Positions 2-18,816 of a stretch of 64,000 nt of DNA are shown here, one piece after another. The notes under the pieces are model-generated. The model was not told the DNA's origin and did no database searches. It saw nothing but the letters and a program-made list of their open reading frames with translations. Location: assembly GCA_963823335.1 (NCBI GenBank), contig CAWGLD010000001.1:1216001-1280000 (forward strand). Reading direction: 5' to 3'. The first letter of the stretch is position 1; each line of letters opens with the position of its first letter. The position numbers were made by a program, and so were the translations under genes. The stretch comes from an uncultured delta proteobacterium. GTDB taxonomy: Bacteria > Desulfobacterota > Desulfobacteria > Desulfobacterales > B30-G6.

Positions 2-814
2 AACGGATGCAGATTCTTTGCGGTAATGGTAGGTGTCCAAAAAGAAATATATGATCAGAAGCATACCAGACACCATCAGCATGTGGGGCATGATTTTAAA
101 TGTCCAGAAAAAAGTGACACCATGGAGGTAGCCCAGAAACAAGGGTGGGTCCCCCAGGGGTGTGAGCGACCCGCCCACATTGGCGACCAGGAAGATGAAA
201 AAAACCACCATGAAGGTTCTGTTTTTGCGATAGTTGTTGGCTCTCAGGAACGGACGTATCAAGAGCATGGCGGCCCCTGTGGTTCCCATCCAGGACGCCA
301 GGAGGGTACCGAGAATCAGTATGATGGTATTGACGACCGGTGTCCCCCTCAGGGAACCCCGTAATAAGATACCACCCGAAACCGTATAAAGCGACCAGAG
401 AAGGATGATAAATGGCACATAATCAACCAGGATGATATGCAGGATTTCATAAACGGCCCCGCCCCTGAAAACCCATAAAAAGGGAATGCCCAGAACGGCC
501 GCCCAAAAAGCGGAAATTTTGCCGAAATGATGATGCCAGAAATTTGGCAGGAGTAGGGGCAGCAGGGCGATGGAGAGCAGCATGCATGCAAAAGGGATAC
601 AGCTCCACAGGGGCAGAATTTCTCCAAGGTTGACATGCCCGCTCCCATGTGCCGATGCCTGGGTGGAACCATGTGCTGCAGGATCATCCGTGTTTTCCGG
701 AGCATGCCCGGTACTTGGGGTATCGGATGCGTGGGTTTCGGCAATCATCGGTACCGGCCAGAACAAGAAACACAGCAGGAATAAAAGGACAGCCATTGTT
801 TTTGGAAAACGCAT
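2..814 (-). CDS. IT-superfamily membrane transporter (CitMHS_2-like, usually annotated sodium:proton antiporter); truncated at the window edge
   Basis: Not in the ORF track; translated by hand from ATG at 814 (RBS GGAAAGG): MRFPKTMAVLLF...LASWMGTTGAAMLLIRPFLRAN...FFIFLVANVGGSLTPLGDPPLFLGY; open to the window edge. Confidence 0.85.
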   Translation of the reverse strand, partial: MRFPKTMAVLLFLLCFLFWPVPMIAETHASDTPSTGHAPENTDDPAAHGSTQASAHGSGHVNLGEILPLWSCIPFACMLLSIALLPLLLPNFWHHHFGKISAFWAAVLGIPFLWVFRGGAVYEILHIILVDYVPFIILLWSLYTVSGGILLRGSLRGTPVVNTIILILGTLLASWMGTTGAAMLLIRPFLRANNYRKNRTFMVVFFIFLVANVGGSLTPLGDPPLFLGYLHGVTFFWTFKIMPHMLMVSGMLLIIYFFLDTYHYRKESASV

Positions 815-1108
815 TTACAAGCACCTTTCCTTATAGTATCTTTTCATCGTTATCATTTTCATCGTCGTCATATAGATGCATAGAGTTTCGATTCTAAGGC
901 ATACCGGCTGTGCAACAGCGCCATCATCATTCTATCGTGGCGGAGGTAAGATAGTGAAAGCACATCCTATACCAAGTTTCAATATAATTCAACGCATGAT
1001 CCATAAACCAAAAAAAATAATTATTGCATTTTCAGATGGGTATGCTATCGAAGAAAACCTGCGTTTCCAATCCCGAAGCATCTGTTTCCTTACATGCTGG
1101 GGGGTTGC

Positions 1109-1342
1109 GTGAACCTCGATTACAAAAAGCATCGTGCATGGGCGGAAAATCTTTCCATTGTCATGCAGATAGGACTGACCATGGCAGGATGTGTTGGTTT
1201 TTGTTTTTTTATCGGTCTCACTCTTGACCGGTGGCTCGGCATTCGAGGACTTTTTACGGTGATTTTTATTCTTTTGGGGATTGCAGGCGGGGCCAATGTC
1301 GTCTATCGTCAGGTTATGGAGATCATCGAGCCAAAAAAGTAA
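1109..1342 (+). CDS. atpZ: AtpZ/AtpQ-family small membrane protein
   Basis: Two hydrophobic segments with GLTLDRWLG...ILLGIAGG; first gene of the atp cluster; GTG at 1109 preferred (ORF track starts at 1094). Confidence 0.8.
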   Translation: MNLDYKKHRAWAENLSIVMQIGLTMAGCVGFCFFIGLTLDRWLGIRGLFTVIFILLGIAGGANVVYRQVMEIIEPKK

Positions 1343-1361
1343 AGTGTCATGTTAGGGAAGA

Positions 1362-1748
1362 ATGGAAGCTATTCACCATACACAGAAAAAATTTGGATCC
1401 AGGGCCATGGTCATGGCTGTTATCGCCGGTATGATTTTTATCCTGGTGGGTCAAAAGTCGATTGCCAAAGGCTTGGTGCTCGGTTCTGTTTTCAGTGTCA
1501 TCAATTTTGTTCTGATCGGTGAAATTATGCCGATGATCATCACGGCATCCCGTAAGAGATCTGTTCTGTTCTCCTTTGCTTCGATGCTGTTTCGATTTCT
1601 GTTGTTATCGGCGCCCCTTCTTTTGTCGCTGAAAATGGAAAGCCTGAATTTTGCTGCTGCCACCGTCGGAATCTTTATGGTGCAGATCGTGATCATGGGA
1701 AGCCATCTTCTAAGGTTAATTTACCCCGAAGGGATGCAAGGGACGTAA
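1362..1748 (+). CDS. atpI: ATP synthase protein I (c-ring assembly factor)
   Basis: 128 aa, about 4 TM helices, GLVLGSVFSVINF motif; lies between atpZ and atpB. Confidence 0.8.
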   Translation: MEAIHHTQKKFGSRAMVMAVIAGMIFILVGQKSIAKGLVLGSVFSVINFVLIGEIMPMIITASRKRSVLFSFASMLFRFLLLSAPLLLSLKMESLNFAAATVGIFMVQIVIMGSHLLRLIYPEGMQGT

Positions 1749-1760
1749 CATAGGACTGTT

Positions 1761-2435
1761 ATGGGAGAACTGGGTAGAATACATCAGCTGATCATTCCGT
1801 TTTACGGACATGACATCACGTTGAATCTGGAAGTCATCCTCATGACGTGGATTGTTTTCTTTCTGTTGATCCTTGTGGGCTTTTTGTCCTCACGCAAGAG
1901 AGCCGTCTACCCCAAGGCCATGCAGGTCTTTGGAGAAATTTTTATCACCCAATTTTATCAGATCACCGAGGATGCGCTGGACAAGAAGATGGCAAAAACA
2001 TATGGTCCTATGATTTGTGCGCTTTTCATGTTTCTTGTGCTGGCAAACTGGCTCGGTATTATTCCCTATCTGGAGGAACCCACAAAGGATCTGAACACAC
2101 CCCTCAGCCTGGGTCTCATGGGGTTTGTGATTGCCCATGTGGCCGGTATTAAATCGAAGGGTTTTAAAGCATATGCCAGGGAATATTTTGAACCGATGTT
2201 TTTTATGATGCCGCTGAATGTCATTGGCGAGTTGGCCAAAATAGTTTCCATATCCTTTAGGCTTTTTGGAAACATCATGGGAGGATCGATCATTATCCTG
2301 GTGGTCTCTTACCTCACATACAGCGTACTCCTGCCGCCTCTGCTCAACGCATTTTTCGGTCTTTTTGTGGGGACGATACAGGCCTTTGTTTTTACCATGC
2401 TGACGGTTGTTTATATTTCGGTCCAGGTAAAGTAG
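1761..2435 (+). CDS. atpB: Fo ATP synthase subunit a
   Basis: PTKDLN, conserved Arg in SISFRLFGNI, and IQAFVFTMLT. Confidence 0.97.
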   Translation: MGELGRIHQLIIPFYGHDITLNLEVILMTWIVFFLLILVGFLSSRKRAVYPKAMQVFGEIFITQFYQITEDALDKKMAKTYGPMICALFMFLVLANWLGIIPYLEEPTKDLNTPLSLGLMGFVIAHVAGIKSKGFKAYAREYFEPMFFMMPLNVIGELAKIVSISFRLFGNIMGGSIIILVVSYLTYSVLLPPLLNAFFGLFVGTIQAFVFTMLTVVYISVQVK

Positions 2436-17730: not shown

Positions 17731-18144
17731 ATGTCAAAGTTAAAGGGAGTCACAATATTTTTGCTTGTTGTTTTTATTTTGAATACCGTTCCTATTGTGT
17801 CTATTTCCGCACCGAATGCGATTGAATGGCAATCATACACCACCGGAATGGACTTGGCTAAAAAAAATAGCAAGTCGGTCTTTCTTCATTTTTATGCAAC
17901 ATGGTGCAGTTATTGTACAAAAATGGAAAAAGAATCGTTTCAAGATGATTCTATCGCCGAATACCTGAATGACAATTTTGTTTCGATAAGAGTAGATGTG
18001 GATAAAGAACAGAATATCGCTGACATGTACAATGTGTTTGGTTTGCCCACCACATATTTTTTTTCCTCGAGTGGCGAAAATCTTGGATCGGTTCCAGGAT
18101 ATATTTCAAAAGATCGTCTGATGACAATGCTGAAGGAGATATAG
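17731..18144 (+). CDS. Secreted thioredoxin-fold protein (SoxW/TlpA-like)
   Basis: Signal peptide; FYATWCSYC motif; cis-Pro loop GLPTTYF; ATG at 17731 after GAGGA. Confidence 0.88.
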   Translation: MSKLKGVTIFLLVVFILNTVPIVSISAPNAIEWQSYTTGMDLAKKNSKSVFLHFYATWCSYCTKMEKESFQDDSIAEYLNDNFVSIRVDVDKEQNIADMYNVFGLPTTYFFSSSGENLGSVPGYISKDRLMTMLKEI

Positions 18145-18147
18145 ATA

Positions 18148-18579
18148 ATGCGAAGCTCATATTTTAAAACACAAGCGATTCTCGCATCACTGATCTTTGC
18201 TTTCGTCGTATCATTGTCTCTGACTGTAACCGCTGCCGAACTTTCTATGATGTCCGTAAACCAGCTCCAGCGTGTATTGGACAACCCCGAGATAGTTGTA
18301 CTTGATGTTCGTGGCAGTAAAGACTGGACTTCCAGTGACTTTAAAATTAAAGGCGCCGTCAGGAGAGCCCCGATAAGTTTTGAATCCTGGGCCAACGAAT
18401 ATTCCAAGGACAGTGTACTGATCTTATACTGAGCATGATCCCAAGAGCAAACGAGTGTCAGTTTGGCACGAAAGCTTATCTCAAAAGGATTTAACCGGGT
18501 TTACGTCTTGAAGGGTGGATGGGATGCTTGGTCAAGATCTAATTTTCCTGTTGAAGAAAAATCACCTCTTCTAAATTAA
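18148..18579 (+). CDS. Secreted rhodanese-like selenoprotein with two in-frame UGA codons (Y-U-A-U), 143 aa
   Basis: LDVR...IKGA...LILY-TGA-GCA-TGA-SQEQTSVSLARKLISKGFNRVYVLKGGWDAW...TAA; the rhodanese C-terminal signature lies in frame beyond both UGAs. Confidence 0.85.
18439..18478 (+). promoter_or_regulatory. Putative bacterial SECIS element
   Basis: GAGC...GTGTCA-GTT-TGGCAC...GCTT hairpin with a G-containing apical loop about 22 nt after the second UGA. Confidence 0.6.
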
Positions 18580-18816
18580 TAACCTCCACCATGGGTTCGA
18601 CTCTGCCCATCCCTCCTCCAATCATAAGGATGTCACCACCATTACATTTATTGAAAAGTATTCTTCTTGGGTTTGATTTATTTTGATTTAAAAGATAAGG
18701 TTTCATTTTGATTGTACAGCCATATAATTAAATTTGACACTCGTATTATTGTTTGGCAATTATAAAGAAGGTGCTGGCGTTAACGATTGAAGTTTTTCAT
18801 CAAGGGGAGGTATCAA

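Follow-up and report, generated by a model that had tools for sequence, protein, structure and literature searches.

Described rhodanese selenoproteins and the gene in the window

Rhodanese-related selenoproteins with either one or two selenocysteine (Sec) residues in the active site have been described. The accessible text of Zhang and Gladyshev 2007 (PMC1976440) reports a rhodanese-related sulfurtransferase selenoprotein in which "a second Sec evolved ... resulting in a UxU motif", the source of this U-x-U rhodanese being metagenomes of the Olavius algarvensis delta-symbiont. The NF041203-type rhodanese, in the available sections of two reviews (PMC9312934, PMC13188914), is given a CxU motif and one Sec. 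We assign the published U-x-U form to this same family because of its name, and because C-x-U is the sole rhodanese form listed in the available text that yields U-x-U. The gene described here matches it as a U-x-U rhodanese from Sec- and Pyl-rich deltaproteobacteria, its source genome having a tRNA-Pyl. The published description, within its accessible text, is without the frequency of the U-x-U form (22 of 105 family matches, see below), its repeated origin, the fixed single hairpin and the purifying selection downstream.

The gene occupies positions 18148-18579 of the plus strand of the window, by which we mean the whole stretch of 64,000 nucleotides that was analysed. It consists of 143 codons plus TAA. 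The frame opens with ATG at 18148, runs through TAC TGA GCA TGA TCC and closes with TAA at 18577-18579. Read and translated with TGA as U, it yields 143 residues (MRSSYFKTQAILASLIFAFVVSLSLTVTAAELS...DSVLILY-U-A-U-SQEQTSVSLARKLISKGFNRVYVLKGGWDAW...PLLN) with the loop U95-A-U97-S-Q-E. UGA1 (U95) lies at 18430-18432 and UGA2 (U97) at 18436-18438, both on the plus strand. The table-11 ORF ends at 18432, and the first-pass annotation had proposed that the frame continues past this stop through both UGAs to the TAA; sequence and translation agree with that proposal. The frame, the hairpin downstream of the UGAs and the C-terminus are all intact. A Shine-Dalgarno-like AAGGAG (18133-18138, plus strand), located inside the end of the upstream thioredoxin gene and 9 nt before the rhodanese ATG, presumably serves in initiation.

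The protein belongs to NCBIfam NF041203.1, "rhodanese_LYCAU, rhodanese-related (seleno)protein", a curated equivalog model with a cut-off of 115 bits. The window protein scores 165 bits, and the runner-up NCBIfam models remain below 38 bits. A six-frame search of the source genome returns one member, at 150.8 bits. Of the L-Y-C-A-U signature, the TGA at 18436-18438 corresponds to the family TGA, while the C of the motif is a U here. Pfam Rhodanese (PF00581) spans residues 37-130, both UGAs included (E 7.2e-13). The AlphaFold2 model has a mean pLDDT of 88.1, with about 90 for residues 91-100, and its best Foldseek matches are rhodanese domains at a TM of about 0.63. With the family, the gene shares a score above the cut-off, the LY-x-A-U loop, the hairpin and an N-terminal hydrophobic segment; it differs in that the available parts of the reviews list one Sec, whereas the window gene has two, with the catalytic Cys replaced.

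We consider it quite likely, judging from the sequence comparisons presented below, that 18148-18579 encodes a functional, exported di-Sec rhodanese of the NF041203 family with the active site U95-A-U97, both UGAs being decoded through one SECIS element. The first-pass annotation had reached much the same view. Its core is supported by our analysis, and the service of a single SECIS to both UGAs, as well as the export, are interpretations argued below. As such, the di-Sec rhodanese adds one more example to a variant already known from a known family, and is ordinary for its clade.

A second described system, TsoB (NF045694), likewise has two Sec in the rhodanese active-site region and a rhodanese linked to a DsbD-type thioredoxin domain. 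The N-terminal part of TsoB matches the window rhodanese at 28 bits and its C-terminal part matches the window thioredoxin at 64 bits, against a cut-off of 805; the spacing of the Sec residues differs, and the two window genes are not separated by a DsbD membrane domain. Identity with TsoB was thus rejected for the rhodanese, which scores 28.2 bits, is without the membrane domain and has the motif UxU, not UxxxxU. A true TsoB is encoded elsewhere in the source genome (G000:C1:348319-350025, minus strand; L131), with 936.9 bits and two in-frame TGAs. Two rhodanese frames on the same contig (C1:344079-344408 and C1:344412-344816) contain one in-frame TGA each.

Among single-domain rhodaneses, Sud acts in the periplasm as a carrier of polysulfide sulfur, and for GlpE thioredoxin is the acceptor. 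Wolinella Sud (1qxn), E. coli GlpE (1gmx) and PspE share the single-domain rhodanese fold with the window protein. They have one Cys in a C-x4-[R/S] loop, in contrast to the window protein with its two predicted Sec and a conserved Glu, and by sequence alignment the window loop is two residues longer. The signature of Cdc25/Acr2-type enzymes is C-x5-R. A phosphatase or arsenate reductase of this type was discarded as a candidate, the loop U-A-U-S-Q-E-Q-T-S being without the closing Arg.

The active site and the reading of UGA

The AlphaFold2 model around the active site consists of a strand (residues 90-94), a loop (95-100) and a helix (101-112). HMMER alignments to three solved rhodaneses place the catalytic Cys at residue 95 in two cases and at residue 97 in one. 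Since these alignments disagree, we used the secondary structure of the model and the conservation within the family instead, and on this basis residue 95 is the predicted rhodanese catalytic-Cys position. That UGA1 occupies the place of the catalytic Cys had been suggested from the window sequence, and the strand-loop-helix order of the model, together with two of the three HMMER alignments, favours it.

Conservation was assessed on several sets of homologues. In all 20 loci from 61 related genomes the second position is TGA, while the first is mostly Cys and in some loci TGA. The UGA2 codon is TGA in 102 of the 105 above-cut-off family matches described below. Residues of protein homologues were taken from the best 150 representatives of a search of 1.84 billion proteins. 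Fifty of these 150 are shortened gene calls, 40 stopping at ...YCx and 10 at ...LY. Among the 100 that are full-length, the site reads C-x-C in 44 and C-x-S in 25, with other residues in the rest; 95 of these 100 align over site 95, and 88 of them have Cys there. Cys or Sec hence aligns with both UGAs, as the first-pass annotation had wished to see checked. As C-A-U is the usual form in the family, UGA2 is its constant Sec, the U of LYCAU, and UGA1 replaces a near-invariant catalytic Cys. By the alignments, UGA1 is a recurrent Cys-to-Sec replacement of the catalytic residue.

The source genome (11 contigs, 4.37 Mb) holds the machinery to read UGA as Sec. It contains selA (610 bits), selB (373 bits) and selD (372 bits), and a tRNA-Sec that scores 75.4 bits against a gathering score of 47 and is called tRNA-SeC with anticodon tca by ARAGORN. 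The first pass had named Sec machinery as a check, and selA, selB, selD and tRNA-Sec are all present. ARAGORN finds 46 tRNAs in the genome, of which tRNA-Sec is the only one with a UCA anticodon; this whole-genome scan yields no tRNA-Cys with a UCA anticodon, which speaks against the earlier alternative that one of the UGAs is read as Cys. The window itself contains no tRNA by ARAGORN. The selD gene (G000:C5:144246-145172, minus strand; L018) has one in-frame TGA and is probably a selenoprotein form of SelD. ARAGORN also reports a tRNA-Pyl with anticodon cta (G000:C2:80111-80184, minus strand), so the source genome may use pyrrolysine as well.

Another explanation for in-frame TGAs would be an alternative code in which TGA is generally sense, the two codons then not being Sec codons. 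Some metagenome gene callers do print W at the Sec position, C-A-W appearing in 3 of the 100 full-length sequences among the best 150 representatives. In the window, however, TGA terminates 9 of the 38 open frames that reach 250 codons or more and is thus an ordinary stop in a standard code. With this stop usage, a UCA anticodon found only on tRNA-Sec and a complete sel set, an alternative code is effectively refuted. The C-A-W calls, which include P0003, P0004, P0008 and P0010 besides the three full-length representatives, probably result from TGA being read as Trp by a caller set to another code, and some database "Cys/Trp forms" of rhodanese_LYCAU may be mistranslated selenoproteins.

When NF041203 was searched in all six frames against 401 genomes from the same order, 105 places in 94 genomes exceeded the cut-off. 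Two TGAs are present in 22 of them, one in 80, a TAA at the Sec codon in one, and none in two. All 22 two-TGA genes were read individually and are of the U-x-U form, 21 being U-A-U and one U-E-U; they are spread over 9 family codes. At this frequency, TGA-NNN-TGA occurs more than by chance. We mapped the U-x-U label onto a tree computed quickly by maximum likelihood from 106 domain sequences; its mere 132 columns leave many forks unresolved, and the truncated G007 copy was left out. The label changes 11 times, at least 5 of these changes being forced by well-supported branches. The family offers a clear example from nature of a catalytic Cys being replaced by Sec again and again beside an existing Sec, and the U-x-U form is common, accounting for about 1 in 5 members in this bacterial order.

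These comparisons also bear on the possibility of a pseudogene or an error of assembly, in which a CAU-type gene would have had its Cys codon mutated to a real stop. The step from TGY to TGA takes a single base change, and decay is seen in related loci, one being truncated (G007) and one having TAA at the Sec codon (G008:C62). Against this stand the same TGA in 22 genes of many genomes and in independent metagenome contigs, the intact frame, hairpin and C-terminus, and the constraint on the codons that follow. Across 10 U-x-U pairs, the uncorrected pN/pS over the 41 codons 3' of UGA2 is 0.11-0.39, which indicates that the stretch after UGA2 is translated. We regard decay or misassembly as very unlikely. 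The concern raised at the outset, that the downstream frame might be that of a pseudogene, is answered by its retention across homologues and by purifying selection past the UGAs. Ordinary gene callers cut the gene at codon 94, but this is no reason to annotate U-x-U members as truncated or as pseudogenes.

Independent samples contain the same locus. A public metagenome contig from another study spans 17939-18700 with one difference, at 18274. A metagenome strain diverged by about 5% shows 17 differences in 18378-18700; 18430-18438 and the stem are free of them. Contigs from an RNA-library run (X11) are 95-99% identical over 17809-18434, and one of them spans the thioredoxin/rhodanese junction, although this is no proof of transcription. 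Cover ends at 18456 in X11 and at about 18160 in X2, gaps from which we conclude nothing.

Two of the related loci appear damaged. The U-A-U copy L029 (G007:C13), which has an upstream thioredoxin, loses similarity inside the SECIS hairpin after ...TSVSL; this gene is disrupted or rearranged. In L078 / L133 (G008:C62), a TAA takes the place of the Sec TGA (LYCA*PSEYTS) while the hairpin is intact, and a recent inactivation or a sequencing error is the probable cause.

A covarying hairpin at a fixed distance from UGA2

A hairpin lies at 18455-18469 on the plus strand. Its stem is formed by GUGUC and GGCAC around the loop AGUUU, or, in an alternative description, by six base pairs around the loop GUU. 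The stem begins 16 nt past UGA2 and 22 nt past UGA1. The hairpin GTGTCA-GTT-TGGCAC had been recognised in the first pass, and we find it at these positions within the minimum-energy fold.

Among the 20 aligned sequences, taken from the codon before UGA1 onward, RNAalifold predicts a single helix that pairs columns 29-33 with 39-43. The cells of this helix are paired in 93% of cases, compared to 22-54% after sliding the 3' partners. Pair 30-42 is UA in 15 sequences, CG in 3 and UG in 2, always at synonymous third positions (Ser AGU/AGC, Ala GCA/GCG), and further compensatory variants of the stem (GCGCA/UGCGC, CUGCC/GGCAG) occur. The loop G at 18461 is invariant in the same alignment, even though the residue encoded there may be S, R, G or W. 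Throughout 107 loci, the stem follows UGA2 after a spacer of 16 nt. All five pairs are formed in 75 of 80 C-x-U and 22 of 23 U-x-U loci, giving 97 of 103 Sec-form loci; the lone U-x-U locus without the full stem is the broken G007 copy. Three non-Sec homologues (C-S-S or C-S-T) form 2-3 of the 5 pairs and have no hairpin. Folded alone, the segment 18427-18500 reaches -13.1 kcal/mol with z = 0.17, not better than shuffles, and a search of the whole window with Rfam gave no family at gathering score, so that the support for a SECIS is purely comparative.

The same geometry raises the question of how far the hairpin acts. In the accessible text of the E. coli reference (PMC8659212), UGA and hairpin are 11 nt apart. 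A reading in which only UGA2 is Sec, with UGA1 either decoded by a near-cognate Trp or Cys tRNA or mostly terminating, would leave a protein with one Sec or a largely truncated product. It draws on the spacing, which is tied to UGA2 whichever form the gene has and stays the same in U-x-U genes, and on the distance of 22 nt from UGA1, twice the E. coli value; the family loci compared show neither a second hairpin nor a shift of the existing one in U-x-U genes. Yet site 95 is a near-invariant Cys, and Trp there would abolish the catalytic residue. The U-x-U form, moreover, arose at least 5 times and is kept in 22 of 105 genes and 9 family codes with purifying selection downstream, and in the source genome only tRNA-Sec has a UCA anticodon. 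A close second Sec is accepted elsewhere, as UxxU in a Prx-like protein and UxxxxU in TsoB according to the accessible review tables, and the TsoB with two TGAs is encoded in this very genome. We therefore judge it unlikely that UGA2 is the only Sec codon.

For the reading with Sec at both positions, we lean towards one fixed hairpin serving UGAs 6 nt apart, with at least 5 catalytic Cys-to-Sec switches having taken place without a change of the SECIS. With the hairpin already in place, a single mutation would suffice to turn any nearby Cys codon into one for Sec. In the proposed course of events, a one-base change would have turned the Cys codon of a C-A-U ancestor form into UGA, giving U95-A-U97, and SelA, SelB, SelD and tRNA-Sec would decode both UGAs as Sec in two successive SelB·Sec-tRNA deliveries. 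From the geometry of the mRNA channel, a hairpin 16 and 22 nt downstream would stay folded and clear of the ribosome whichever of the two codons occupies the A site. For a single UGA in E. coli, the accessible text of PMC4513850 gives a Sec insertion efficiency of 30-40%; with each insertion only partially efficient, two insertions would compound the loss.

Two close UGAs that apparently share one bacterial SECIS bear on how strict the spacing between UGA and SECIS is. If the shared use is true, SelB of this clade tolerates a wider UGA-SECIS distance than the E. coli paradigm, and the rhodanese_LYCAU family would be a natural template for diselenide active sites in bacteria.

Probable export, proposed chemistry and neighbouring genes

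The rhodanese begins with a probable Sec-type signal peptide of about 30 residues (18148-18237, plus strand; MRSSYFKTQAILASLIFAFVVSLSLTVTAA). In the AlphaFold2 model, a hydrophobic helix comprising residues 6-23 (pLDDT 59-73) precedes the rhodanese domain. The orthologues all have a hydrophobic or lipobox-like N-terminus, which the three non-Sec homologues do not have. The protein is probably exported from the cytoplasm.

Directly upstream, at 17731-18144 on the plus strand, lies a gene of 137 codons for a thioredoxin-fold protein with a hydrophobic N-terminus, a probable signal peptide, and a WCSYC active site. It starts with ATG at 17731 and ends with TAG at 18142-18144, leaving a gap of 3 nt to the rhodanese ATG. 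The product matches Pfam Thioredoxin_2 (E 2.9e-18) and, in part, the NCBIfam models for TsoB (positions 434-567 of 572, 64 bits) and DsbD (467-571 of 574, 60 bits), both scores being far under the whole-protein cut-offs. By these matches, the neighbour is similar to the C-terminal (gamma) domain found in DsbD and TsoB. The hydrophobic N-terminus and the thioredoxin family matches are in line with the secreted WCSYC thioredoxin that the first pass had placed 3 nt upstream. The source genome encodes three DsbD-type membrane proteins, which are candidate electron donors to the thioredoxin.

A tblastn search with the window thioredoxin found it adjoining the rhodanese in only 3 of the 20 loci (G000, G004 and G007), and a conserved thioredoxin-rhodanese system was rejected on this count. 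The relay for selenium and sulfur, or via a diselenide, that had been envisaged between the two proteins is accordingly conceivable at this locus but does not characterise the family.

We postulate that, in the exported protein, residue 95 would take up sulfane sulfur as a selenopersulfide, and that residue 97 would resolve it to form a diselenide (S-Se in the C-x-U form). That residues 95 and 97 act as a pair is suggested by how often C-x-C, C-x-U and U-x-U occur. A periplasmic thiol-disulfide protein would re-reduce this pair, plausibly the adjacent and possibly co-transcribed DsbD-gamma-like thioredoxin at this locus. The role may lie in the transfer or reduction of sulfane sulfur (thiosulfate or polysulfide) or of a related chalcogen. 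The active-site loop of the window rhodanese contains the conserved Glu and no Arg. A conserved acidic loop residue (C-A-U-P-N-E) is not what one expects of a rhodanese that binds anions, and its substrate may thus be something other than thiosulfate.

Other neighbours and fusions occur in related genomes. A gene for an APC-permease-like protein of about 440 amino acids lies directly upstream of the C-A-U rhodaneses of four loci (L026, L027, L030 and L033); a match to Pfam AA_permease_2 (E 1e-17) is confined to the L027 copy. At L132 (G322:C23) and L133 (G008:C62), the permease-like frame runs stop-free into the rhodanese, and these in-frame fusions suggest a unit of a transporter plus a periplasmic Sec-rhodanese. 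At L038 (G016:C43, about 355-1935, minus strand), a U-A-U rhodanese is fused to a C-terminal multihaem cytochrome c with 8 CxxCH motifs (Pfam Multi-haem_cyto, E 7e-14). At L025 (G009:C10, 3-1403, plus strand), a multicopper oxidase (Cu-oxidase_3, E 2.8e-27) is encoded directly upstream of a U-A-U rhodanese, a single case in which the adjacency may be coincidental.
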